Of a DNA stretch of 38,679 bases, positions 1-36,766 are shown piece after piece. Within the stretch, counting starts at the first letter, position 1. Every line of letters starts with the position of its first letter. The notes below the pieces were generated by a model, which worked only from the letters and a program-made list of their open reading frames with translations, had not been told where the DNA came from and ran no database searches. The translations under genes were made by a program, and so were the position numbers. This DNA is from a virus (lineage: Duplodnaviria > Caudoviricetes), in IMG/VR virus record IMGVR_UViG_3300020045_005470, positions 1 through 38,679 of that record. One strand, written 5' to 3'.

Positions 1-1330
1 TCGCAGGATTAGGACAAGATTACACAATACCAACGGGAGCAATTGCATTAAAAGGATGGATAAATGACGGAATTCAACATTTAGAACAAACAGGCTTTGA
101 AAGCGATTTAAACACATTTACACAAACAGGTGCAATAGTCACATTTAAGAAAACAATTACAACAAATCAACGAATAATTATAGACTACTACTTATGAAAA
201 ACATACTTTTTTTACTATTTTCAATAGCAACGTTTGGGCAAGTCTCAACAGGAAATGAAACCCCGTTCGACTATGGAATACAAAATACAGCCGCTCAATT
301 AGTCGGAAATTCTGATTATGTAGTTACACAAGGAAACGATGGTACTTATGGTAAATATTTGTTTAACTTAAATAATATTGACAAAAAACAATATTTATCA
401 ACTGGTTTGGTTAAAAATGGGACGGTTTCCATAAATGCAGACCCGACAAAATACAATATTAGTGCAGGAATTGGGGTTATAACAAATTATGACAATCCAG
501 AAATACCAACGTGTACGGTCGTTAATTTTCCTGCTGTTATTGGAAAGACACCGACTTATTTGACTACTGGACTTATAACGTATGTAGCTATAAATTCAAT
601 CGGTGTAGTAGTTGAACAAGCTACACAATTTACAACAAGCCAAAGACGTGATTTGATTATATTGGGTGCGGTGATACACAGTAACCTAACAACAATAAAC
701 GTAGTCAATAATATTTCAGCACCTACCAATGCAGACACAAATCAATTACACGACCTTATGACTTATATAGGCGCGTTAAATTTGACTGGAAATAAATACA
801 CGGCAAACGGTGCTAATTTAAGTTTGGACAAAAGCGCGGGTTCGATATTTAAACCGGGTGTAAACTTTGCAACTGATTGGAAGAAACCACACGAATTAGA
901 ACAGTCTTTGCAAACATTATTGACGTTTAGATACAGGCTTTCTAACGGAACGGAATACGCAGATGCTACCGTTTTAAACCCTGCTGTTTATGAATCAGGA
1001 GGAACTTTAATATCCGTACCATCGAATAAATTTACCATTCAAACGGTTACAATGTTTCAAACAGGTTTGACACGAATACAGCCGGGACAAAACATTTACA
1101 ATTCACTTGCAGAAGCTGAAAGTGCTATTTTAACGCGTTCATTTGTTGTTGAAACTAATATAGCTGCAAACGGAATAACACGCGCTTATGTGATATTAAG
1201 GAATTCTGCAACATCATTACAAAATACAAGTGATGCAAAAATAATTGAGACTACTAAATTTGGAGGCGTTGCAAGTGGTGGGGTTTCTTTAAGTGATGCG
1301 GCTATTATCGCAGCTTTGGGGTATACGCCA
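1..1330 (+). repeat. Diverged direct repeat, copy 1 (copy 2 at 34561..35890)
   Basis: Colinear at a constant offset of 34560 nt with no indel seen; many synonymous differences; similarity ends after the codons for ALGYTP. Confidence 0.95.
3..197 (+). CDS. 5'-truncated paralog of the 34257..34757 baseplate/fibre-associated protein
   Basis: Manual translation AGLGQDYTIPTGAIALKGWINDGIQHLEQTGFESDLNTF...QRIIIDYYL* aligns without gaps to the C-terminus of 34257..34757; ATGA overlap with ORF 194. Confidence 0.85.
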   Translation, partial: AGLGQDYTIPTGAIALKGWINDGIQHLEQTGFESDLNTFTQTGAIVTFKKTITTNQRIIIDYYL

Positions 1331-3568
1331 GCAAATTTAACAGACGTTAATACAACTAATTCCAACGGAAATACTATCTGGGTAGCTTCAAATGACGCAA
1401 CAACAGAACAAAAAAAGAACGCTTTATATGTTTGTGACGGGACAGCAGATGAGGTTCAGATAAATCAAGCAATACAGGCTATTTCAGCAAGCAGAGGAGG
1501 AACAGTTCGCTTAACGCAGGGTAGGTTTTCATTGTCAACGCCTATTATAATTGATAGAGCCTTAGCGTTAGTTGGCTCTGGTCGTGGAATAAAATTGTCA
1601 CTCGATAATCCTGCTACGGCAACAGACACAAGGGGTACGGCAATTTATCAAACTACTAATACGGATGTGATTAAAATAGACACCCCTAATAAGTTACAAG
1701 GGTTTGAAATAAAAGATTTACTTTTAGTTGGATACGGCAGACAAAACACACCAACAGGACACGGTATTCATATAGCAGGAGGTTCTGATGTTTCTGTAAT
1801 TAGAAATGTTTCGATTTCTGATTGTTATGCAGGTATATTTTACAATCACGATGTAACAGCTCAAATGCTAGACACGCCTTGGGTTGACCAATGTACCATA
1901 CAAAGAAACCACATTGGAATGCTTATTATTGGGGGTCATTTAATGCGAATAACTAATAATATTTTTTGGGAAAATTATGGAATAGGTTCTTATGGCGGTT
2001 ATGATTTCAATTGCGGAGGAATAGCCATTCAGGGACTTGGTAATAATTTAATTTCAAACAATCATTTTGGAGAAAATAATTTCATCGAGGATGCAAATGC
2101 TTCTAAAAACAGCTCCCATTTATCTTTAATTTATGCAAATGATTTAGTATCAAATAATTTTTTTGGTGGCATTCAAGGGAACGGAATAAAAATGACAGGC
2201 TATGTGTCTTACTCTAAGGTGTCAAACAATTATTTTACAAACTTCGGCAAAGGAACAGGGCTAACTAACGCTCAAAGGTCGGGTATTTATATTGAGTTTT
2301 CACAAAGTAATGTTATTGAAAATAACTATATGCTTTCAGCTACCGGAAGTTATGGTATTTATGAAGATTATACCAGTTTTAAAAATTCTTTTGTAAACAA
2401 TGTATTTCAAGACTTGATAAACAACACGGCAAACAGGATATTTTCAGAAGGTACTGAAAATTATCAAAACGGAACAATTGTAAGACCTGATTTGTTGCCT
2501 GAAAAATACGTTCCTGTGAGTGGCGATATTGATATAAACGACAACAAAACATTTATAGCAGAAACTTATTTTAATGAAAATATAGGAGTGGGTGCTGGCA
2601 CTGGAATTATATCCACAGGCATATCAGATATGACAGGAAATATACAAGGGCAATCCATAATACTTAGGCAAGATAATTTATTAGACGGCACATTGATAAG
2701 ACCTGTGCCATCTGGAAGTGCTGGCGATTATGATTTTCATACTTTTAAAAATTCTATTTTAGACGGTAATTTATTTTTACAGAGATTACTTGGTAGTGTA
2801 GGTATTGGAAATGGAAGCAATGCAAATTCTACAGGTAAAAAATTAGATGTATGGGGGAATGCCGCAATCGGCGGAGGCGCAAGATATGACGTTAATGCAA
2901 CTTTAGAGGTAAGTGCGTCCGGGAATAATTCGGTTGTTTATTCAAGGCCAGCGTCTTCAAATCAAAACGGATTCTTTTTCAACACCGCCGGGAACTTTGA
3001 TTGGTTTGTTGGTAATTTTGGATACGAAACAAATATGTTGTTTTATGACGTTTCCAATGGCAAGACTAGGTTAAAAATAACGCCAGGATCGGCTGAGGCA
3101 TCTTTAGAAATTGACGGAACTACGGGTAATTTTAAAATAACTTCTACACCTCCAACCAGTTCAGGAACATACGACATTTTAACAAGGAATACGAGTACTG
3201 GAGTTGTTGAGAAAATAGCGTCAGCGTCAGGAGCCTATACACCCATCTTGACAAACACTACTAATATATCATCAAGCACATTAAATGCTGCATATTATAC
3301 TCGAATTGGGAATTTAATAACAGTAACTATTGCAGTTCAGACTACTTTGACAGCAGCAGCAGAAACTGTTTTAACTTTTTCTTTGCCTATATCAGGAGCA
3401 ACCACAGTAAATGGCATTGGACAAGGTAACTTAACATCAGGAGGTGGTTCTATTAATGGTTATGGGATAGTTGATATTACAAATTCAACTACAGGACAAT
3501 TAAGGATCGGAAAGCCAGATGGTAGCGGTTCAGGAGTTACAAATATAATTTTTACTTATTCACTTTAA
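194..3568 (+). CDS. Tail fibre/tailspike-like adhesin with pectin-lyase-like parallel beta-helix (putative depolymerase)
   Basis: 1124 aa; CDGTADEVQINQAI...GGTVRL motif typical of the start of tailspike beta-helices; repeated I(S/T)NNxF rungs; ALGYTP linker; lies between structural and lysis genes; signal-peptide-like N-terminus. Confidence 0.75.
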   Translation: MKNILFLLFSIATFGQVSTGNETPFDYGIQNTAAQLVGNSDYVVTQGNDGTYGKYLFNLNNIDKKQYLSTGLVKNGTVSINADPTKYNISAGIGVITNYDNPEIPTCTVVNFPAVIGKTPTYLTTGLITYVAINSIGVVVEQATQFTTSQRRDLIILGAVIHSNLTTINVVNNISAPTNADTNQLHDLMTYIGALNLTGNKYTANGANLSLDKSAGSIFKPGVNFATDWKKPHELEQSLQTLLTFRYRLSNGTEYADATVLNPAVYESGGTLISVPSNKFTIQTVTMFQTGLTRIQPGQNIYNSLAEAESAILTRSFVVETNIAANGITRAYVILRNSATSLQNTSDAKIIETTKFGGVASGGVSLSDAAIIAALGYTPANLTDVNTTNSNGNTIWVASNDATTEQKKNALYVCDGTADEVQINQAIQAISASRGGTVRLTQGRFSLSTPIIIDRALALVGSGRGIKLSLDNPATATDTRGTAIYQTTNTDVIKIDTPNKLQGFEIKDLLLVGYGRQNTPTGHGIHIAGGSDVSVIRNVSISDCYAGIFYNHDVTAQMLDTPWVDQCTIQRNHIGMLIIGGHLMRITNNIFWENYGIGSYGGYDFNCGGIAIQGLGNNLISNNHFGENNFIEDANASKNSSHLSLIYANDLVSNNFFGGIQGNGIKMTGYVSYSKVSNNYFTNFGKGTGLTNAQRSGIYIEFSQSNVIENNYMLSATGSYGIYEDYTSFKNSFVNNVFQDLINNTANRIFSEGTENYQNGTIVRPDLLPEKYVPVSGDIDINDNKTFIAETYFNENIGVGAGTGIISTGISDMTGNIQGQSIILRQDNLLDGTLIRPVPSGSAGDYDFHTFKNSILDGNLFLQRLLGSVGIGNGSNANSTGKKLDVWGNAAIGGGARYDVNATLEVSASGNNSVVYSRPASSNQNGFFFNTAGNFDWFVGNFGYETNMLFYDVSNGKTRLKITPGSAEASLEIDGTTGNFKITSTPPTSSGTYDILTRNTSTGVVEKIASASGAYTPILTNTTNISSSTLNAAYYTRIGNLITVTIAVQTTLTAAAETVLTFSLPISGATTVNGIGQGNLTSGGGSINGYGIVDITNSTTGQLRIGKPDGSGSGVTNIIFTYSL

Positions 3569-10887: not shown

Positions 10888-11075
10888 AAGTTTTATGTAA
10901 ACATTGCGAAAATCTTTGCAAAAAATTTGGAAGGATTGAATGTGAAGATTACAAAAAGACCAGTATTGATGATTTAGAAAATCAAAGAAAACAACTTTTG
11001 GTATCTGGACAAAATCCAGCTTTATTAAAAGAAATTCAAAGAAAGCTAGATTATTTTAATTGGGGTATTAAATAA
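10884..11075 (+). CDS. Small four-Cys protein (paralog of 18499..18687)
   Basis: CKHC-x3-C-x7-C-x2-Y. Confidence 0.65.
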   Translation: MKVLCKHCENLCKKFGRIECEDYKKTSIDDLENQRKQLLVSGQNPALLKEIQRKLDYFNWGIK

Positions 11076-11080
11076 TTTTG

Positions 11081-11186
11081 TATATTTGCTTTATAGTTGC
11101 CGTCTCACATTACGAAACAAACGGAATTATAACTAATCCGATAATGAACATAGAAGTGAGACGCTATGGGATTTATCGGATTTTTT
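11081..11186 (+). promoter_or_regulatory. Promoter plus structured leader/attenuator A
   Basis: TAtaTTTG 11081-11088; cgtctcac 11101-11108 complementary to gtgagacg 11156-11163 in the loop of hairpin aatccgataa/ttatcggatt (11135-11182) followed by T tract. Confidence 0.75.
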
Positions 11187-11198
11187 AATTTATATTAT

Positions 11199-11570
11199 AT
11201 GGATAGAATTTATCATCGTTATGAAAAATGGGAATGTTTTAAAAATGGATTTTTTAGAAATGTTTCTGGACAAGAAAAAATACCTTTATCTGAAAAGGTT
11301 ATAGAGTTATTTAATGATTCTGAAAAAACAAAGGAATTTATGTTTAAGGTTATAAGCGAATGGAAATATTCGTGTGAACACAATTTAAGCAATTTATCAT
11401 TAAATCGAGTTGCTTGGCTTGGACAGTCAGCGTGCTGTATTTATGCTAAAATTCCATATTCAATCACAATGGAAAATTGGCGAAATGTTCCAAAAGATAA
11501 ACAAGATATTGCCTGCGATATTGCAGAAAAAATAATTAAAGAGTATGAATTATGCCTAAAATCTATTTAG
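11199..11570 (+). CDS. Hypothetical protein heading the IbrAB-like operon
   Basis: Start moved to MDRIYHRYEKWE (ATG 11166 lies inside the leader hairpin); overlaps the next gene. Confidence 0.75.
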   Translation: MDRIYHRYEKWECFKNGFFRNVSGQEKIPLSEKVIELFNDSEKTKEFMFKVISEWKYSCEHNLSNLSLNRVAWLGQSACCIYAKIPYSITMENWRNVPKDKQDIACDIAEKIIKEYELCLKSI

Positions 11571-12766
11571 AACAAAACGTTTACGATGCAGCGGTTGAAA
11601 GAGTAAAATTTACTTTTGACAACTTTGAAAAAATATATCTTTCGTTTTCGGCCGGAAAAGATAGTACCGTAATGCTTCACATAGTAATGGATGAGGCAGT
11701 TAAAAGAAATGTAAAAATAGGACTAATGATAGTTGACTTAGAAGGACAGTATAAATTAACTATTGATCACATGAAAGCTTGTATTGAAATGTACAAAGAT
11801 AATATTGATTTATATTGGGTATGCTTACCTATTCACTTAAGAAATGCCGTTTCTGTATTTAAGCCATTTTGGAAGTGCTGGGATTCAGAAGTAAAACAGG
11901 ACTGGATTAGAGAGCTGCCTAAACAATCCATTTCAGACCCTAAATTTTTTCCATTTTTTCGTGACGGTATGGAATTCGAGGAATTTGTTCCAGAGTTTGG
12001 TGAATGGTATTCTCAGGGCAAAACTTGTGCGTGCTTGGTTGGAATTAGAGCAGACGAAAGTCTTAATCGCTATAGAACCATTGCAAGTGATAAAAAAATA
12101 AAATTTCAAAATAAGCAGTACACTACAAAAGTTACTGACAATATTTTTAATGTTTACCCAATTTACGACTGGAAAACAGAGGATATATGGACTTATCACG
12201 GTAAAAACAAACACAAAAGGCACAATGGATTATATGATATGATGCAAAAAGCTGGCCTATCAATTCATTTGCAACGCATTTGCCAACCATATGGAGACGA
12301 TCAAAGAAGAGGTCTGTATCTATTTCATTTAATTGAGCCAGAAACTTGGGCAAAAGTAGTGGCAAGAGTTGAGGGCGCAAATAGTGGTGCATTATACGTT
12401 CAAGATACCGGAAACATAAACGGTTACGGAAAGATAACAAAGCCTATGCATCATACTTGGAAGTCGTTTTCTGAATTAATATTAAATACTTTGCCGGAAG
12501 TTACATCTGAACATTATAAAAATAAAGTTTTCACTTTTATTAAATGGTGGGAAGAAAGAGGTTATAAAGACGGCATTCCCGATGAAGCACCATCTATTTT
12601 AGAGAGCGAAAGACTCGCGCCATCTTGGAGACGTATATGTAAGTCATTATTAAGGAATGACTATTGGTGCAAAGGACTTGGATTTACCCAACACAAAACA
12701 GATGCTTATAACAAGTATTTAAAACTAAAGAAAGAACAAAGAGAATTAAACAATTTTAAATTATAA
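11552..12766 (+). CDS. ibrA: PAPS-reductase-like PP-loop protein with DUF3440 (IbrA/YbdN-like)
   Basis: SFSAGKDS PP-loop, GIRADES, YPIYDW, RICQPYG, PSWRRICK motifs; adjacent ParB-like gene. Confidence 0.85.
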   Translation: MPKIYLEQNVYDAAVERVKFTFDNFEKIYLSFSAGKDSTVMLHIVMDEAVKRNVKIGLMIVDLEGQYKLTIDHMKACIEMYKDNIDLYWVCLPIHLRNAVSVFKPFWKCWDSEVKQDWIRELPKQSISDPKFFPFFRDGMEFEEFVPEFGEWYSQGKTCACLVGIRADESLNRYRTIASDKKIKFQNKQYTTKVTDNIFNVYPIYDWKTEDIWTYHGKNKHKRHNGLYDMMQKAGLSIHLQRICQPYGDDQRRGLYLFHLIEPETWAKVVARVEGANSGALYVQDTGNINGYGKITKPMHHTWKSFSELILNTLPEVTSEHYKNKVFTFIKWWEERGYKDGIPDEAPSILESERLAPSWRRICKSLLRNDYWCKGLGFTQHKTDAYNKYLKLKKEQRELNNFKL

Positions 12767-12771
12767 TAATT

Positions 12772-13419
12772 ATGAAAAATCAAATTATATCACTTATTCA
12801 AGAGCTGCAAAAATTAAATGTAGATGAAAAAGTACAAGCTATGAATGAAATAAAAATAGCAATGCACGAAATAAGCCCTTTTAATTCTGAGCCTGTAGAT
12901 TGTGTTTTATGGGTAAAAAATGAAACTATACACGCTAACGACTATAACCCAAATAGCGTTGCGCCTCCAGAAATGGAATTGCTTAGGCTTTCAATAAGTT
13001 CAGATGGATATACACAGCCAATTGTTTCTATGTTGGAAGACGATATGCAAACGAGGGAGGTTATAGATGGGTTTCACAGAAATAGAGTTGGAAAAGAATG
13101 TGAGGAAATTCAAAAAAGAGTTCACGGATACTTGCCAGTAGTTACGATTAATGAAGACAGGACTAAAATAAATGACCGAGTAGCCTCTACTATTAGACAT
13201 AACAGAGCTAGAGGAAAGCATAAGATTGACGCCATGAGCGATATTGTTATTGACTTGAAAAAACGTAATTGGAGCGACGCAAAAATATCTAAAAATCTTG
13301 GAATGGATCAGGACGAGGTTTTGAGGCTTTGTCAAATTGGAGGTTTGGCCGAATTGTTTTCAGACAAAGAATTTTCTAAAAGCTGGGAAGCTGAAAATTA
13401 CCAAGATGATGAAATATAG
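12772..13419 (+). CDS. ibrB: ParB/Srx N-terminal domain protein (IbrB/YbdM-like)
   Basis: NDYNPNSVAPPEM, GYTQPIV, VIDGFHR, STIRHNRARGKH, C-terminal HTH. Confidence 0.85.
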   Translation: MKNQIISLIQELQKLNVDEKVQAMNEIKIAMHEISPFNSEPVDCVLWVKNETIHANDYNPNSVAPPEMELLRLSISSDGYTQPIVSMLEDDMQTREVIDGFHRNRVGKECEEIQKRVHGYLPVVTINEDRTKINDRVASTIRHNRARGKHKIDAMSDIVIDLKKRNWSDAKISKNLGMDQDEVLRLCQIGGLAELFSDKEFSKSWEAENYQDDEI

Positions 13420-14143
13420 CAATGACAAAAGAGTGAGTTTTGATAGTAAGACTCACTCTTACTTTTTAGGTAAAAAAAGACTTGAATCGGTAACGACTTT
13501 ATTAAGTACGTTTAAAAACAAATTTGATTCTGAATACTGGAGCAAAGTAATAGCCAAAAGAGAGAACAAAACACAGGAAGAAATACTCGAACAATGGAAG
13601 GAAAAAGCTAATAAATCCTGTGAAATAGGAACGGCAATACATAAGATATTTGAAGATTATACGTTAGGGAATTATTCGTTATTACACAATGAAATTTCAA
13701 TTGATTTTTTTGACATAAAGCCGGAATATTTTACAGAATTTCACGCAAAAGCAATTGTAACAACTAATTTTATAAAAGACTTTTTTCTAACTAAAAGAAT
13801 TATTCCTTTACATTCCGAATACATTTGCTATAACGAATCGATTGCCGGGCAAATAGATATGATATGTACAGACTCAAAAGGAAATTATTACATTTTAGAC
13901 TTTAAAACAAATGAGAAAATAGATTTTGAGTCTTATAAGAATACGAAAATGCTGGGTATTTTAAACTTTATTGACGATAGTAGTTATTGGCATTATTGTT
14001 TACAGCTATCTATTTACAAAGAGTTATGTAAAGAATTTGATATAAGAAAATTATTTTTAGTTCATATAACAAAAGAAAAATATCATTTTATTGAGTGTGA
14101 AAACATTTTAGAAAAAATAAATTTAAGTGATATAATTCAATAA
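13406..14143 (+). CDS. PD-(D/E)XK exonuclease-like protein
   Basis: SVTTLL, GTAIH, IAGQIDMI...ILDFKT, HYCLQLSIY motifs; start moved to MMKYS. Confidence 0.85.
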   Translation: MMKYSNDKRVSFDSKTHSYFLGKKRLESVTTLLSTFKNKFDSEYWSKVIAKRENKTQEEILEQWKEKANKSCEIGTAIHKIFEDYTLGNYSLLHNEISIDFFDIKPEYFTEFHAKAIVTTNFIKDFFLTKRIIPLHSEYICYNESIAGQIDMICTDSKGNYYILDFKTNEKIDFESYKNTKMLGILNFIDDSSYWHYCLQLSIYKELCKEFDIRKLFLVHITKEKYHFIECENILEKINLSDIIQ

Positions 14144-14150
14144 AATTTAT

Positions 14151-14252
14151 TATATTTGTGTTTGTATTATTGGTGGAGCATTAATACACAGAAAAACATT
14201 ATTGACTATCCTATCAGGGCGGAACTCCACTTCCAAACTGATAGGATTTTTT
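14151..14252 (+). promoter_or_regulatory. Promoter plus structured leader/attenuator B
   Basis: TAtaTTTG 14151-14158; hairpin tgtatta/taataca with loop gtggag (14173-14178); hairpin atcctatcag/ctgataggat (14208-14247) with loop ctccac (14225-14230) followed by T tract. Confidence 0.8.
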
Positions 14253-14257
14253 ATATT

Positions 14258-15802
14258 ATGAAAAAAACACTTTACCCACATCAAAAAGATTTCCTTGATG
14301 AAATACTTTTAAAAATTAAAGAAGTAGATTCTGTTTGTTGCCAATTAAGTACAGGCGGCGGAAAGACCGTAGTGTTTACAGAGCTAGTTAAAATTTTAGA
14401 TTCAAAGACATTAATTTTAGTTGATAGTATTGATCTTGTAAATCAAACTTTTGATACATTTAAAAAACAAGGTGTTGACGTTGGTTGTATTTTGGCTGGA
14501 AATACAAAAATACCTGAAAATAAAGTAATTGTTGCAATGATAAAAAGTCTTTGGAATAGACGTAAAAAAATGCCATTATTTGAAGTTTGCATAATCGACG
14601 AATGCCATTTATGGGAGGTAAATAAGCTATTTGAATTTTTACCAAACTGCAAACGAATTGGATTTACAGCAACCCCAGTAAGATTAAAACGAACCAAAAT
14701 AGACGATGAGTATTCGGAAGTTGAAACGATGTCGCAATGGTATGATAATATTGTATGCGGCAAACCAATTAGCTGGTTAATGGAGCACGGATATTTAATA
14801 CCAGAAAAAAACGAATACATTGACTTTGACTCATCAGGATTAAAAACAGATGCAAGCGGTGAATTTACCGCTTCTTCACTAAAAGAAGTATTCCAAAGTG
14901 AAACTTATAAAAATGCACTTCGTAAAACTTTTGATAAATTATGCGACGGTAAAAAAACTTTACTTTTCACTTCGTCAACCGAAACTAACGCAATTTATGC
15001 AGAACTTTTTAGCGATAAAAACGTAAAAACATACGATAGCGTAAATAATAATCCAAACGAACGCGATGATATTGTAGAATGGTTTAGGACTACACCGGAT
15101 GCCGTTTTAATTAATACCGGATGTTTCACAAAAGGTTTTGACGTTTGCGATGTCGAGGTAATTTTAATGGCACGCGCAACAAAAAGCCTTTCGTTATGGA
15201 TTCAAATAGCTGGCCGTGGAGCTCGTAAAACCTCAAAAATAGAAAAACCTTATTTTTTATTAATCGATGGGGGTAACAATAATGAAGAACACGGAATATT
15301 TAGTTTTGATAGGGATTGGAGAAAGATATTTTTTGATAAACAACGAAAATCATATTTAAAAGACATTTACGAATGTGAAGAATGCGGCTTTAGTTTTGAG
15401 AAAAAAGACAAAATATGTCCTAATTGCGGGTGTGAAATTCCTGAAAAAGAAAAACCGGAAGAAGTTGAACAAAAGGAGTTTGTAATTAAAGGACAAAAAA
15501 ATAAGATTTTACCCCCTACTTTAGATTTAGAATTTCATATTATTAAGGGTCATTCTAAATATGAAACATTAAAGATTTTAAGAATGAAGTGGATTACTTT
15601 TTTATGTAAATTAGACCTCCCATTTAATGACTTCATTTGGCACGAAAATAAAGGAAATTTCCAAATGAGATTTAATAAATTTTTAAGACCGTTATTTTTT
15701 AAAATATTAGCTTCAATTTTAAAAGATGGAAAACATACAAAATACAATACTGTTTGCGAAAAAATACTAACCGATACTAAAATAAAAAAATATGAAATTT
15801 AG
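14258..15802 (+). CDS. Superfamily 2 DExH helicase with C-terminal zinc ribbon
   Basis: LYPHQ, TGGGKT, DECH, TATP, KGFD, QIAGRGAR, CEEC...CPNC; start moved to MKKTLY. Confidence 0.92.
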   Translation: MKKTLYPHQKDFLDEILLKIKEVDSVCCQLSTGGGKTVVFTELVKILDSKTLILVDSIDLVNQTFDTFKKQGVDVGCILAGNTKIPENKVIVAMIKSLWNRRKKMPLFEVCIIDECHLWEVNKLFEFLPNCKRIGFTATPVRLKRTKIDDEYSEVETMSQWYDNIVCGKPISWLMEHGYLIPEKNEYIDFDSSGLKTDASGEFTASSLKEVFQSETYKNALRKTFDKLCDGKKTLLFTSSTETNAIYAELFSDKNVKTYDSVNNNPNERDDIVEWFRTTPDAVLINTGCFTKGFDVCDVEVILMARATKSLSLWIQIAGRGARKTSKIEKPYFLLIDGGNNNEEHGIFSFDRDWRKIFFDKQRKSYLKDIYECEECGFSFEKKDKICPNCGCEIPEKEKPEEVEQKEFVIKGQKNKILPPTLDLEFHIIKGHSKYETLKILRMKWITFLCKLDLPFNDFIWHENKGNFQMRFNKFLRPLFFKILASILKDGKHTKYNTVCEKILTDTKIKKYEI

Positions 15803-29043: not shown

Positions 29044-29156
29044 TATATTTGCTATGAATAATTGTGTGAAGTTGCACAAAACCAAAATTTAGCCATTTTG
29101 AAAAAACGTATTAAAAGACCTAAAAGCCTACTTGATTAATTTCGAGTAGGCTTTTT
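29044..29156 (+). promoter_or_regulatory. Promoter plus structured leader C with terminator hairpin, ahead of the head operon
   Basis: TAtaTTTG 29044-29051; hairpin ttgtgt-gaagtt-gcacaa 29062-29079; 14-bp hairpin 29122-29155 with T tract. Confidence 0.65.
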
Positions 29157-29174
29157 GTCGTTACATTCAAAAAT

Positions 29175-30197
29175 ATGAAAGTATATAAATTAACAAGACC
29201 AGAAGATTATAAAGGATTATTTGCTGAAAGTTTGGTGACAGATCCAGCTATCCAAAGTAATTTAATGGCGTTTAGCGAAGAAAAAGAGTTCACATTTCAG
29301 GATGAGGAGCAAAGAATTATCTATGCGCCCGCTTTGATACCTAACAAAATGATTTTTCGCAAAGATATTCAGGGAGAACCAGCACACGTATATTTTGAAA
29401 AAGAAACTATCAAAGAATTACTAATCGAGCAATCAAGACAAGGACAAAAAACACTTATAAACGTAAACCATTCAGCGGACGTAGTTGAAGGGTGTTTTAT
29501 TTTCGAATCTTGGATAGTTGATGATAAACAAATCGATAAATCTTTTAAAATGGGTTTCGATGTTCCAGAAGGTACGTTAATGCGAGGTTACAAAATCGAT
29601 AACGATGCAGTTTGGAATGATATTAAATTAGGAAATTTAAAAGGTCTTTCAATTGAAGGTCAATTATTTCCAGAAGAAGTAAAATTAAATAAACACGATA
29701 TGAACAAAAAAGGATTAATTACTTTGGCAATTGAAGCTTTTAAAGCAGCTTTTAAATTTGCCGATATGACTGACTACGGAAACGGTTTCTTTGGTTCGTC
29801 TTTAGAATTGGGATCTATTATTTCCGATAAAGACGGCAACCCAATGGCAAACGCTGAATTTGAGTACGAAAAAAATAAGTACAAAACCGATGATATGGGA
29901 GCGATTTCAGAAATCGAACCTATCGAAGATGCACCAGCAGAGCCGGCAGATGATGGTAAAGATGCTAAAATCTTAGAATTAGAAACTAAAATTGCTGATT
30001 TAGAAGCGAAACTTACCGAGGCAACAGCCACAAAAATGGCTAACGAGGCAGTGATCCCAGAATTAGAAGCTAGACTTGTAAAACTTGAATCTGAGTTGAT
30101 TGAAGCAAGAAAAATTAAACCTATCATTTTAGCTGAGGAAGTTCCTTATGAAAAAATGACCAACGCACAAAAAGTAAAATTTAACCGAAACAAATAA
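29175..30197 (+). CDS. Prohead protease/scaffold (XkdF-like serine protease)
   Basis: RIIYAPALIPNK.I.R, NVNH, FESWIV, LKGLSIEG; acidic coiled-coil C-terminus; upstream of capsid gene. Confidence 0.8.
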   Translation: MKVYKLTRPEDYKGLFAESLVTDPAIQSNLMAFSEEKEFTFQDEEQRIIYAPALIPNKMIFRKDIQGEPAHVYFEKETIKELLIEQSRQGQKTLINVNHSADVVEGCFIFESWIVDDKQIDKSFKMGFDVPEGTLMRGYKIDNDAVWNDIKLGNLKGLSIEGQLFPEEVKLNKHDMNKKGLITLAIEAFKAAFKFADMTDYGNGFFGSSLELGSIISDKDGNPMANAEFEYEKNKYKTDDMGAISEIEPIEDAPAEPADDGKDAKILELETKIADLEAKLTEATATKMANEAVIPELEARLVKLESELIEARKIKPIILAEEVPYEKMTNAQKVKFNRNK

Positions 30198-32744: not shown

Positions 32745-33793
32745 TGACTTTTTCAGCTTATATGCCTTCTATAAAAGAAGTCGTTGTAGGCACAAAATAC
32801 ATTTTAAACGGGGTGAATAACGAAAACTACAAACTATTTGGAGATGCTTACGATGATAGCGTAACTAATAGCGCATGTATTAATGATATTTCAAACTTAG
32901 TAGTTGGTGAAGGATTAATTGATGCGTCAAATACTCACAATCCTTATATTAATATTTCTGAACAAGATTTTAATCTTGCAGTTTTGGATTACGAAAAACA
33001 AGGCGCGTGTACTTTTGAGATAGTTTGGGGATCAGAAAATAAACCAGCTAAAATATTCCATAAGCCAATTGAAACAATAGGATTGAACGTAAATGAAAAT
33101 CAGGAAATAAATGGCTATTGGTATTCTTATGATTGGTGCAAAAAATGGAAGTATGTGCCACAATTTTACACTAAATTTAATGGTGAAAAACCAGAAAACG
33201 GAGTTTCTATTTTAAGAATTGTTCGCCCATCAAATGAACCTTTGTTCCCACGTCCTCATTGGTTTCCTGCTTTACGCTGGGCACAAGATGAAGGATTAAT
33301 GGCTCAACATTCATTTAGCGATATTAAAACTGGATTTTCAGGTCAAAAAGTAATTAATTGGGCGGGAGGTCGTGGACTTACAGATGCGCAAAAAGATGAT
33401 GCAGCCACTAAATTAAGAGATAAATTTTCTGGAATAAATGGTCAAAGAATAGTCGTTTCAGTTGGAAATAGTCCTGAAAATGCAGTTATAGTAGATAATA
33501 TTGACCCGCCAAATGTAAACGCAACTTATGTTAATTATACCGAAGAAGCTGAAAGAAAAATATTAATTGCGCACTCATATCCAGCTATTTTATTAGCCGG
33601 TTCAAAAACAGGTTTTAGTTCAAATGCAGACGAAATAGCAGTTGCTACGAAATCAGTATTTAGGAGAAAAATAAACCCAGATAGAAATGTAATTTTAAGC
33701 GAGTTACAAAAAGTTTTTAAATTAATTGAGCCGTCTATTGTTTTAGACTGTAAAAACTTTGATAGTGATAATTTAGATACCAATACCAAATGA
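32744..33793 (+). CDS. Portal protein (probable)
   Basis: YDDSVTNSACIN, ERKILIAHSYP.IL.G...GFSSNADEI...I.P pattern of portal stem and crown helices. Confidence 0.75.
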   Translation: MTFSAYMPSIKEVVVGTKYILNGVNNENYKLFGDAYDDSVTNSACINDISNLVVGEGLIDASNTHNPYINISEQDFNLAVLDYEKQGACTFEIVWGSENKPAKIFHKPIETIGLNVNENQEINGYWYSYDWCKKWKYVPQFYTKFNGEKPENGVSILRIVRPSNEPLFPRPHWFPALRWAQDEGLMAQHSFSDIKTGFSGQKVINWAGGRGLTDAQKDDAATKLRDKFSGINGQRIVVSVGNSPENAVIVDNIDPPNVNATYVNYTEEAERKILIAHSYPAILLAGSKTGFSSNADEIAVATKSVFRRKINPDRNVILSELQKVFKLIEPSIVLDCKNFDSDNLDTNTK

Positions 33794-34266: not shown

Positions 34267-34757
34267 TACAAAACATAAATGTTTCGACTCCTAATGATGG
34301 TTTAGGCGATACGCTTCGGGATTCACAAGTTAAGGCAAATGAGAACTTTGCCGAACTTAATTTAAAAAAAGTTGAAGTACAGGCTGGATTTGGATTGACA
34401 CAGGAAAATTTTACAACTGCTGAAAAGGCTAAACTTGCCGACATTGCAGCCGATGCCGAAAAGAATGTACAAGCAAACTGGAATCAATTAGATGATACCC
34501 AAGACGACTTTATTATTGGAAAACCAACAAGTATTTTACAAACTATATCATCATTACGATTTATAGGAGCAGGGCAAACTTATACTATTTCAGTTGGGGG
34601 AATTGCATTTAAAGGATGGATAAATGATGGAGTGCAACATTTAGAGCAAGCAGGTTTTGAAAGCGATTTAAATACGTTTATTCAAATAGGAAATAATGTT
34701 ACATTTAAAAAACCAATCACAGCAGGACAACGAATAATTTTAGACTTTTACTTATGA
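34257..34757 (+). CDS. Baseplate/fibre-attachment protein with T4 gp9/gp10-like N-terminal motif
   Basis: INVSTPNDGLGDTLRDSQVKANENFAEL. Confidence 0.65.
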   Translation: MALIQNINVSTPNDGLGDTLRDSQVKANENFAELNLKKVEVQAGFGLTQENFTTAEKAKLADIAADAEKNVQANWNQLDDTQDDFIIGKPTSILQTISSLRFIGAGQTYTISVGGIAFKGWINDGVQHLEQAGFESDLNTFIQIGNNVTFKKPITAGQRIILDFYL

Positions 34758-35890
34758 AAAATATACTTTTTTTACTTTTTTCAATCGCAACATTTGGACA
34801 AGTTTCTACAGGTCAAGAAACCCCGTTCGACTATGGAATACAAAATACAGCCGCACAATTAGTTGGTAATTCTGACTATGTAGTTACGCAGGGTAGCGAT
34901 GGTACTTATGGAAAGTATTTATTTAACTTAAACAATATTGACAAAAAACAATATTTAGCTACTGGTTTAATTAAAAACGGTACTATTTCAATAAATGCAG
35001 ACCCGACAAAATATAATATTAGCGCAGGAATAGGGGTTATAACAAATTACGACAATCCAGAAATACCAACGTGTACGGTCGTTAATTTTCCTGCTGTTAC
35101 TGGAAAAACACCAACCTATTTAAATATAGGACTTATAACATACGTTGCAATAAATTCAAGCGGTGTAGTCGTTGAGCAAGCTACACAATTTACAACAAGT
35201 CAAAGACGTGATTTAATTATATTGGGGGCGGTTATTCATTCTAATTTAACAAGCATAAACGTAGTAAATAATATTAGTGCTCCAACAAACGCAGATACAA
35301 ACCAACTACACGACCTTATGACTTATATAGGGGCGTTAAATTTAACAGGAAATAAATATACTGCAAATGGCGCGAATCTCTCTCTCGATAAAAGCGCGGG
35401 AAGTATATTTAAAGCAGGCGTTAATTTTGCAACTGATTGGAAGAAGCCACACGAATTAGAACAATCTTTACAAACATTATTGACGTTTAGATATAGACTT
35501 TCTAACGGCACGGAATATGCAGACGCTACGGTTTTAAATCCTGCTATATATGAATCAGGGGGAATTTTAATAGCCGTACCATCGAACAAATTTACCATTC
35601 AAACGGTTACAATGTTTCAAACAGGTTTGACACGAATACAGCCGGGACAAAACATTTATAATTCACTTGCAGAAGCTGAAAGTGCTATTTTAACGCGTTC
35701 TTTCGTTGTTGAAACGAATATAGCTGCAAACGGAATAACACGCGCTTATGTGATATTACGTAATTCAGCAACATCATTACAGAATATAAATGATGCAAAA
35801 ATAATTGAGACTACTAAATTTGGAGGTGTTGCAAGTGGTGGGGTTTCTTTAAGTGATTCGGCTATTATTGCGGCTTTGGGATATACGCCG
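34561..35890 (+). repeat. Diverged direct repeat, copy 2 (copy 1 at 1..1330)
   Basis: Gapless alignment at offset 34560. Confidence 0.95.
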
Positions 35891-36766
35891 GAAAATGCAG
35901 CGAATAAAAGTAATGCTTATGTAGTTGATGGCACAGGAACTAAATATTACACGTCAGATTATATTAATACAAATTTACCCACTAATTACACTACAATTGT
36001 TTATGTGAATTCAACATCGCCAAATACGGCGACTATTTTTGATGATGTTAATCCCCCTATTGCGAATGATGATGCTTTGAAATTAAGTACAGCAAATTTA
36101 TATATTGGAACAGACGCAAGTACTTGGGTGTATAATGGCAGTACTTATGTGACTAAAACAGTTCCTACTTCATCAAACTTTTATATAGAAAGCACTACGA
36201 CTGATGCTGGAAGCAACAAAACATCCAACATACAAAGGTCTGGAGGTGTTGTTTTTGGAAATTACATATACTCTTACGGAGAAATAGTTTCTAAAAAAGC
36301 AGCATCCGATACGGTACTTTCTGGAAGTAATTTTAGATTATTTAACAATGCAGGAACAGATGGAAATATTTTTCAATTGAACGCCTCAAACGGTATAGAT
36401 ATATGGAATTACACAAGTGGAGTTTGGAACAAAAGATTTACTTTCTCAAGTAGCGGCATATTTTCGGCTACTGCAATAAACGCAGGTATTGTGGTTCGTA
36501 AAATTTCAACAAACACAACGCTTTCAGATAGCGATAATGGGAAAGTAATTCTACTTACTGCATCATGCACAGTTACTTTACCAAATGGGTTAATGAACGG
36601 TTTTAACTGTTCTTTTTCCACGTTAGCAGGCGTTACAATGACTTATGCGTTAGGTGGGTCTGTTACATTATTAAACAATATAGGAACTACAATGGCTGAA
36701 AAACTAAGCCATACAATTGTAAATACGGGGGTTTCAAATGAATATTTAACAGCTGGGTCGTTATGA
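34754..36766 (+). CDS. Second tail fibre/adhesin, paralog of 194..3568 with a different C-terminus
   Basis: First 379 aa differ from ORF 194 at 17 positions by my count; unrelated after ALGYTP. Confidence 0.75.
   Translation: MKNILFLLFSIATFGQVSTGQETPFDYGIQNTAAQLVGNSDYVVTQGSDGTYGKYLFNLNNIDKKQYLATGLIKNGTISINADPTKYNISAGIGVITNYDNPEIPTCTVVNFPAVTGKTPTYLNIGLITYVAINSSGVVVEQATQFTTSQRRDLIILGAVIHSNLTSINVVNNISAPTNADTNQLHDLMTYIGALNLTGNKYTANGANLSLDKSAGSIFKAGVNFATDWKKPHELEQSLQTLLTFRYRLSNGTEYADATVLNPAIYESGGILIAVPSNKFTIQTVTMFQTGLTRIQPGQNIYNSLAEAESAILTRSFVVETNIAANGITRAYVILRNSATSLQNINDAKIIETTKFGGVASGGVSLSDSAIIAALGYTPENAANKSNAYVVDGTGTKYYTSDYINTNLPTNYTTIVYVNSTSPNTATIFDDVNPPIANDDALKLSTANLYIGTDASTWVYNGSTYVTKTVPTSSNFYIESTTTDAGSNKTSNIQRSGGVVFGNYIYSYGEIVSKKAASDTVLSGSNFRLFNNAGTDGNIFQLNASNGIDIWNYTSGVWNKRFTFSSSGIFSATAINAGIVVRKISTNTTLSDSDNGKVILLTASCTVTLPNGLMNGFNCSFSTLAGVTMTYALGGSVTLLNNIGTTMAEKLSHTIVNTGVSNEYLTAGSL

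Follow-up and report, generated by a model that had tools for sequence, protein, structure and literature searches.

A widespread, covarying family of predicted kissing-loop terminator leaders in phages of Bacteroidota

The phage leaders described here have their closest counterparts in layout in guanidine-IV (GGAM-1/mepA) and Gd4v, in which a loop-loop pseudoknot likewise links two hairpins, the one at the 3′ end being a Rho-independent terminator (PMC7736828, PMC11611296, PMC9788692). These RNAs also occupy a 5′ leader of ~90 nt and use a kissing loop that counters the terminator but does not overlap the terminator stem; in guanidine-IV, as outlined in PMC11611296 and PMC7736828, the contact that P1 makes with the loop of the terminator keeps the latter from assembling during a narrow transcription window. 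A second set of relatives, P4 CI (seqA/seqB/seqC), P1/P7 C4 and Gifsy-1 IsrK, shares with our leaders a phage setting in which internal complementary segments and a premature terminator precede replication or antirepressor genes (PMC4825925, PMC2864571). In the account given by PMC4825925, the replication genes of P4 are silenced by a self-derived RNA, which pairs with seqA and seqC, and the transcript on which IsrK acts is its own; by analogy, the short RNA made from a leader of the present type could act on the transcript from which it comes. In P4 CI and P1 C4, as here, the complementary target lies upstream of the active loop on the same transcript.

The DNA analyzed (the window) covers the full 38.7 kb of a virus record and comes from a tailed phage, with genes for terminase, portal, endolysin, helicase and primase. 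Its TAnnTTTG boxes fit the Bacteroidota −7 consensus, which points to a flavobacterium-like Bacteroidota as the inferred host. Two leaders are considered, leader B (the 11081 element, before an IbrAB-like operon) and leader A (the 14151 element). Leader B, at 11081–11199, follows an ORF that ends at 11075 and precedes an IbrAB-like block of three genes. We call its 5′ hairpin P1, its terminator-like hairpin P2, the 5′ code a and the code in the P2 loop a′. Start sites in F. johnsoniae lie 4–5 nt behind the −7 box (PMC6847099), and this spacing positions the predicted start of leader B among the following features.

11081–11088, + strand: Bacteroidota −7 promoter box TATATTTG, matching the consensus TANNTTTG (as given in PMC6847099)
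~11093–11094, + strand: predicted transcription start of leader B, from the box spacing
11093–11135, + strand: P1, weak 5′ hairpin of uncertain register (folding, ~−5 kcal/mol)
11101–11108, + strand: 5′ code a, CGTCTCAC (RNA CGUCUCAC), partner of the P2 loop (sequence and alignment covariation)
11135–11182, + strand: P2, terminator-like hairpin with a 10-nt loop (RNAfold)
11135–11144/11173–11182, + strand: P2 lower stem, 10 bp (sequence, folding)
11145–11148/11169–11172, + strand: P2 4×4 internal loop UGAA/GGAU (U·U/G·A/A·G/A·G type)
within 11135–11182, + strand: P2 upper stem, 5 bp, CAUAG/CUAUG (sequence, folding)
11154–11163, + strand: P2 terminal loop AAGUGAGACG (sequence)
11156–11163, + strand: loop code a′, GTGAGACG (RNA GUGAGACG) (sequence and alignment)
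11181–11186, + strand: U tract (T run), predicted termination point (sequence)
11199, + strand: ATG start codon of the operon, 12 nt past the T run
11199–11570, + strand: first ORF, 123 aa, a gene traveling with IbrAB, with no Pfam or PHROG family
11552–12766, + strand: IbrA-like PAPS_reduct + DUF3440 protein
12772–13419, + strand: IbrB-like ParB-family protein (phrog_2159)
14151–14258, + strand: leader A, of the same architecture, before the helicase-primase operon (ATG at 14258); code GUGGAG (14173)/CUCCAC (14225)

An earlier note on this DNA had placed the box, the two 8-mers, the hairpin, the U tract and the ATG of leader B correctly in every case, and the full 8-nt complementarity that it reported between 11101–11108 and 11156–11163 is present. 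Each 8-mer occurs once on the + strand, and a match of 8 nt between the two windows of leader B is reached in 8 of 5,000 dinucleotide shuffles; the 6-nt match of leader A is reached in 151 of 5,000. RNAfold returns P2 as listed (z −2.6 for 11093–11190), and at −14.4 kcal/mol with six T residues behind it P2 of leader B has the stable hairpin and U tract expected of an intrinsic terminator. Neither this P2 nor that of leader A was listed by a simple perfect-stem terminator scan of the window because the stems of that scan permit no internal loop. P1 of leader B is weak (−5.1 kcal/mol), and its minimum-energy fold buries three of the eight complementary code bases. In truncated folds, made with programs that cannot treat a kissing loop jointly with both hairpins, the a:a′ helix is the most stable structure between 11160 and 11176, and the terminator takes over at 11180. 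Chance as the source of the a/a′ complementarity is ruled out by the shuffles together with the cross-paired controls and the alignment covariation described below.

Leader A, whose ATG follows just 10 nt beyond the stem, differs from leader B in its P2 internal loop and is 51% identical to it; the codes of the two cross-pair over 3 nt only, and a model built from B-type leaders detects leader A only at E 0.02. The two are distinct subtypes of a common architecture. At this identity and with unlike internal loops, the pair alone does not amount to covariation, so that the “natural covariation inside one genome” proposed for them does not hold for A and B by themselves, although covariation is found in the wider family.

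Elsewhere in the window, the 123-aa ORF behind leader B has a tblastn match in 73 of 80 IbrA loci. A strong 14-bp hairpin with a T-rich tail (13429–13460), just past the ParB-like gene and overlapping the likely start of an exonuclease ORF, may mark the end of the IbrAB transcript. Another box, at 29044, is followed by an inverted repeat AAAAGCCTACTTGA..TCGAGTAGGCTTTT (29098–29175) immediately before the head-protease gene; no 5′/loop complementarity was found in this element, which is possibly a different type of gate on late genes. The tail-fiber paralogues (194–3568 and 34754–36766, both phrog_5668) share a stretch of 82% identity (5–304 versus 34565–34864), a possible receptor-binding duplication or recombination cassette.

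A detector that used only the box, hairpin and U tract was run across the window and 98 loci reached through IbrA and helicase proteins; it yielded 195 candidates whose pairing lengths are bimodal, with a background at 2–4 nt and leaders at 6–10 nt. In an independent test on viral contigs, a pattern free of any complementarity, though carrying the GGATTT of the subtype of leader B, gave 120 matches, 54 without a hairpin and 65 unique ones with it; at least 7 nt of 5′/loop complementarity is present in 38 of these 65, versus 3.1% of cross-paired controls in which 5′ ends were crossed with the loops of different matches. In an alignment of 37 non-redundant B-type leaders (of 54; alignment A1), P1 is 89.8% paired and the 8-bp a:a′ helix 97.6%, the latter percentage being partly built in because rows were chosen for pairing of at least 7 nt; the diversity of pair types is not built in by this selection, and both sides change in six of the eight pairs. 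The covariation score of 0.725 lies above all 500 shuffles and all slid controls (0.219 shuffled, at most 0.093 slid), and RNAalifold selects the a:a′ helix unaided. The search for further leaders with kept complementarity, which the earlier note had called for, brought the family to 229 unique leaders in 135 clusters (85% identity) with 72 codes, the code frequencies being biased by two codes that served as queries in part of the search; one doubtful match (L179) was excluded before the co-residence, promoter/target and cluster counts. The idea that phages carry a family of RNA elements differing in their loop pairs is thus strongly supported by the blind scan, the covariation in A1, the 72 codes and RNAalifold, and we regard the kissing-loop terminator leader of Bacteroidota phages, as defined from sequence, as confirmed to be a real, widespread and covarying family.

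Across the family the predicted loop-loop helix has 6–9 bp, a and a′ are 47–59 nt apart, and the overall length is tight, with 80–98 nt from the box to the end of P2. Median energies are −4.6 kcal/mol for P1 and −16.6 kcal/mol for P2, whose lower stem has a median of 10 bp and is followed by a median of 7 T in 8 nt; P2 is interrupted by an internal loop in 130 of 135 clusters, 63 of which have a conserved UGA/GAU loop. The 5′ code is pyrimidine-rich in 89 clusters and purine-rich in 39, so that pairing rather than sequence is what is conserved. Subtype I has, in A1, near-invariant unpaired letters (AC ending a, A-x-x-A-U-A in loop 1, UGAA/GxxU) that are missing from leader A and from 72 of the 135 clusters. 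Two leaders (L094 at 2322 and L360 at 11632) reverse the polarity of leader B, with GUGAGAC at the 5′ end and GUCUCAC in the loop; their loops match the loop side, not the 5′ side, of B-type codes.

Compared with guanidine-IV and Gd4v, the phage leaders have unconserved kissing letters (six of eight pairs vary, in 72 codes of both polarities), precede replication, homing-nuclease and accessory genes instead of SugE/MATE/GNAT genes (no SugE, MATE, PnuC or GNAT gene is among the 64 first genes scanned), and are carried by phages with Bacteroidota promoters. The leader thus appears to work like this class without belonging to it, the conserved loop letters and typical genes being missing. Nor does it seem to be a member of the c4/CI group as described in PMC2864571. 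Unlike P4 CI and P1 C4, 65 of 67 phage leaders are without a second target downstream (seqC, a2b2), the search over 400 nt giving 2 of 67 versus 9 of 1,286 controls, which is no enrichment; the phage leaders are also much shorter, with no separate processed antisense domain seen. Rfam, c4 models included, gave no relevant match in the window or in 20 leader loci. A plasmid-type antisense-RNA attenuator would have a convergent promoter; opposite-strand TAnnTTTG boxes, the one promoter type counted, lie within 120 nt downstream of 6 of 104 leaders versus 47 of 352 control windows, so that the promoter counts lend no support to the antisense transcripts over the loops that the earlier note had suggested looking for. 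The pRNA of phage phi29 is likewise short and phage-encoded, and the letters of its two complementary loops covary from phage to phage. It is a single free-standing packaging RNA; the leaders, in contrast, occur in multiple copies per genome and always directly before ORFs.

Parts of the family have possibly been catalogued already among the anonymous candidates of Fremin et al. 2023, of which DNAVirus_8377 (105 nt, with a terminator, Bacteroidetes hosts and NUMOD4/HNH/GIY-YIG genes) and DNAVirus_187 (49 nt, DUF1376/DUF4373) fit parts of it in length, habitat, host and downstream genes when compared by description only (PMC10690425). The main text of that paper contains neither “kissing” nor “DUF6291,” and the literature searched, which left subscription papers largely outside, showed no description of a kissing-loop leader family.

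The end of the stem lies 6–52 nt from the start codon, mostly 10–30 nt. From 107 listed first genes, 64 were scanned, omitting homologues of the helicase and of the IbrAB partner as well as near duplicates: 13 encode DUF6291 proteins and seven NUMOD4-HNH proteins, GIY-YIG, Lin1244_N, DUF1376, primase, DEAD helicase and DUF6378 occur once each, and 38 have no family. One DUF6291 protein has homologues annotated as “replication protein” in cultured phages. At helicase homologues the leader stands directly before the gene in 15 of 17 assessable loci and a single gene further upstream in the remaining two, and judged by such gene assignments the leaders appear to lie mostly before replication genes. 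A leader is present at just 11 of 71 assessable IbrAB-partner genes, and hence is not part of the IbrAB module. A helicase 95% identical to that of the window (locus L087) follows a leader that is 69% like leader B and 46% like leader A; leaders are thus exchanged as modules between near-identical genes, in a comparison whose leader tree has poor resolution, with support for 3 of its 12 inner branches. Two near-identical leaders at one locus (L006, at 1648 and 13013, 11.4 kb apart) each precede the start of a NUMOD4-type gene, and the leader seems to move together with homing-nuclease genes.

Complete or partial sequences of seven cultured phages were inspected; six of these phages were picked by sequence match, and Cellulophaga phi38:1 for its published infection RNA-seq. 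The six, 11b, Gundel_1, elemoA_7-9A, phi13:2, lillamy9-1 and Harreka_1, carry a leader, and Gundel_1 has one ahead of a replication protein and another ahead of an antirepressor; phi38:1 has none among 76 candidates. The box of the 11b leader is at 33621; the leaders of elemoA_7-9A (minus strand) and lillamy9-1 lie at about 10312 and 14098, respectively, and the two of Gundel_1 at about 16777 and 33891. In cellular genomes, just short contigs of two MAGs scored: a GTDB pattern scan gave 16 matches, including three leaders (L230, L232 and L233) on contigs of 1.6–6.5 kb, and an insensitive search with a model of one subtype (R1) found no match in 150 other genomes of the class to which genome G001 belongs, among 26 candidates scored per genome. 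One MAG (G003; L233) has two subtype-I leaders on short contigs and is labeled Candidatus Fonsibacter, which is not a member of Bacteroidota; these are likely mis-binned phage DNA.

Building on the layout, the loop-loop covariation, the position before start codons and the exchange of leaders, all of which are read directly from the sequences, we infer that transcription starts at the box, can terminate at the U tract, and is modulated by a kiss formed in the nascent RNA that has an antiterminating effect. In this promoter-proximal leader, the 5′ code a pairs perfectly with loop a′ of the predicted intrinsic terminator, and we posit, with a probability of roughly 0.6, that this loop-loop contact arises in the course of transcription and impedes closure of the terminator, leading to read-through into the operon. 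The leader is then likely a gate that lets transcription through to the genes behind it. In 132 of 135 clusters no promoter box lies between P2 and +20 of these genes, yet they include initiators, helicase and primase, and read-through would thus be needed. The P2 internal loop would let the short upper stem expose a′ first and slow zipping of the lower stem; by hindering closure of that stem, the kissing contact would allow a fraction of polymerases to read through. The kiss would close a ring through the 5′ arm, around which the polymerase-tethered 3′ arm would have to wind about one turn, plausibly a slow process. A kinetic race, rather than a ligand pocket, would set the level of read-through, and the leading candidate for an input that shifts this race is the terminated RNA of the leader itself, acting in trans.

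Other readings of the kiss have been considered. It could be a tertiary fold that the short RNA adopts after termination, stabilizing this RNA or turning it into a decoy or a protein binder, read-through being left to terminator leakiness or to a separate antiterminator. A crude estimate of P1-P2 linker reach (reach/rod with a median of 1.05, falling below 1 in 50 of 125 and sufficient in 75 of 125) favors neither side, so that the kiss and a complete P2 may occur together, the kiss then belonging to the terminated RNA instead; a negative correlation between linker length and P2 length may be a boundary artifact and is left out of the argument. The invariant unpaired letters of subtype I, which suggest a defined three-dimensional fold, and the tight length point the same way, but these letters are missing from leader A and over half of the clusters, a leader always stands close ahead of a start codon, and several copies with different codes occur per genome; we consider this reading unlikely. 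A true riboswitch or protein-dependent antiterminator, in which a small molecule or protein recognizes the kissed structure, for instance at its tandem G·A internal loop, would accord with the arrangement shared with guanidine-IV and Gd4v and with the internal loop conserved in 63 clusters. Guanidine-IV requires conserved loop bases, however, and here the loop letters are free; with downstream genes that share no metabolic theme and leaders at so few IbrAB-partner loci, this reading is distinctly unlikely. Cis-encoded antisense RNA or translational control, through P2 over the start region or a leader peptide, is most unlikely: the short stem-to-ATG distance in leader A and the tuning of Flavobacterium initiation by structure near the start codon, as reported in PMC6847099, would suit it, but most spacings exceed 15 nt, the U tract is conserved and opposite-strand boxes are fewer than in control windows. 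A leader peptide from the conserved AUGA was rejected: the frame that starts at the AUG of the AUGA loop stays open across the hairpin in just 16 of 63 cases, and the A is replaced in 12 of 63.

Action in trans is compatible with the cis kiss and would supply its control input. Terminated leaders of ~90 nt could accumulate, and their P2 loops could kiss the nascent 5′ code, block the cis kiss and so bring about termination; the outcome would be a burst on entry followed by shut-off, or a code-specific incompatibility, in the manner of the silencing of P4 replication genes by CI RNA. The position before replication operons (helicase loci, DUF6291 genes), the swap of leaders between near-identical helicase genes and the P4 precedent summarized in PMC4825925 speak for such a self-made repressor, as does the lack of cross-pairing in 22 of 23 co-resident pairs. 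Yet a single cross-pairing in 23 is not significantly below the 14.3% expected (p = 0.14), so selection for orthogonality is not supported, and that one case is L006, with the same code twice before its two NUMOD4-type genes. Loop pairs are therefore orthogonal as a fact of sequence, in the window and in these 22 pairs, but not beyond chance; by the same counts, the suggestion that they insulate different operons lacks support as a selected function. Among 12 pairs of near relatives, none fetched by code, change per pair is 0.22 in the code (21/96), 0.25 in the upper stem (12/48), 0.15 in P1 and 0.10 in the lower stem; the code thus does not evolve faster than the stems and gives no sign of extra diversifying selection. 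This and the absence, unlike P4 with its seqC, of a second downstream target argue against a trans repressor, which we regard as a tentative possibility.

If the cis-kiss reading is right, a widespread and uncatalogued gate would act on DNA-replication operons of Bacteroidota viruses, and kissing-loop antitermination of the guanidine-IV type would work with free letters and without a ligand pocket. It would also provide a part of ~90 bases with programmable codes for controlling genes in Flavobacterium and in Bacteroidota more generally, for which few regulatory tools exist. The copies in cultured phages make the choice between cis and trans directly testable; insulation of operons would be relevant only for RNAs acting in trans. 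In that case, and we offer this as speculation, the leaders might be interchangeable, protein-free RNA counters: the cis kiss would fire replication genes in a naive cell, the terminated product would shut the operon in trans, and the code of 6–9 letters would set phage incompatibility groups and separate the operons of one phage.
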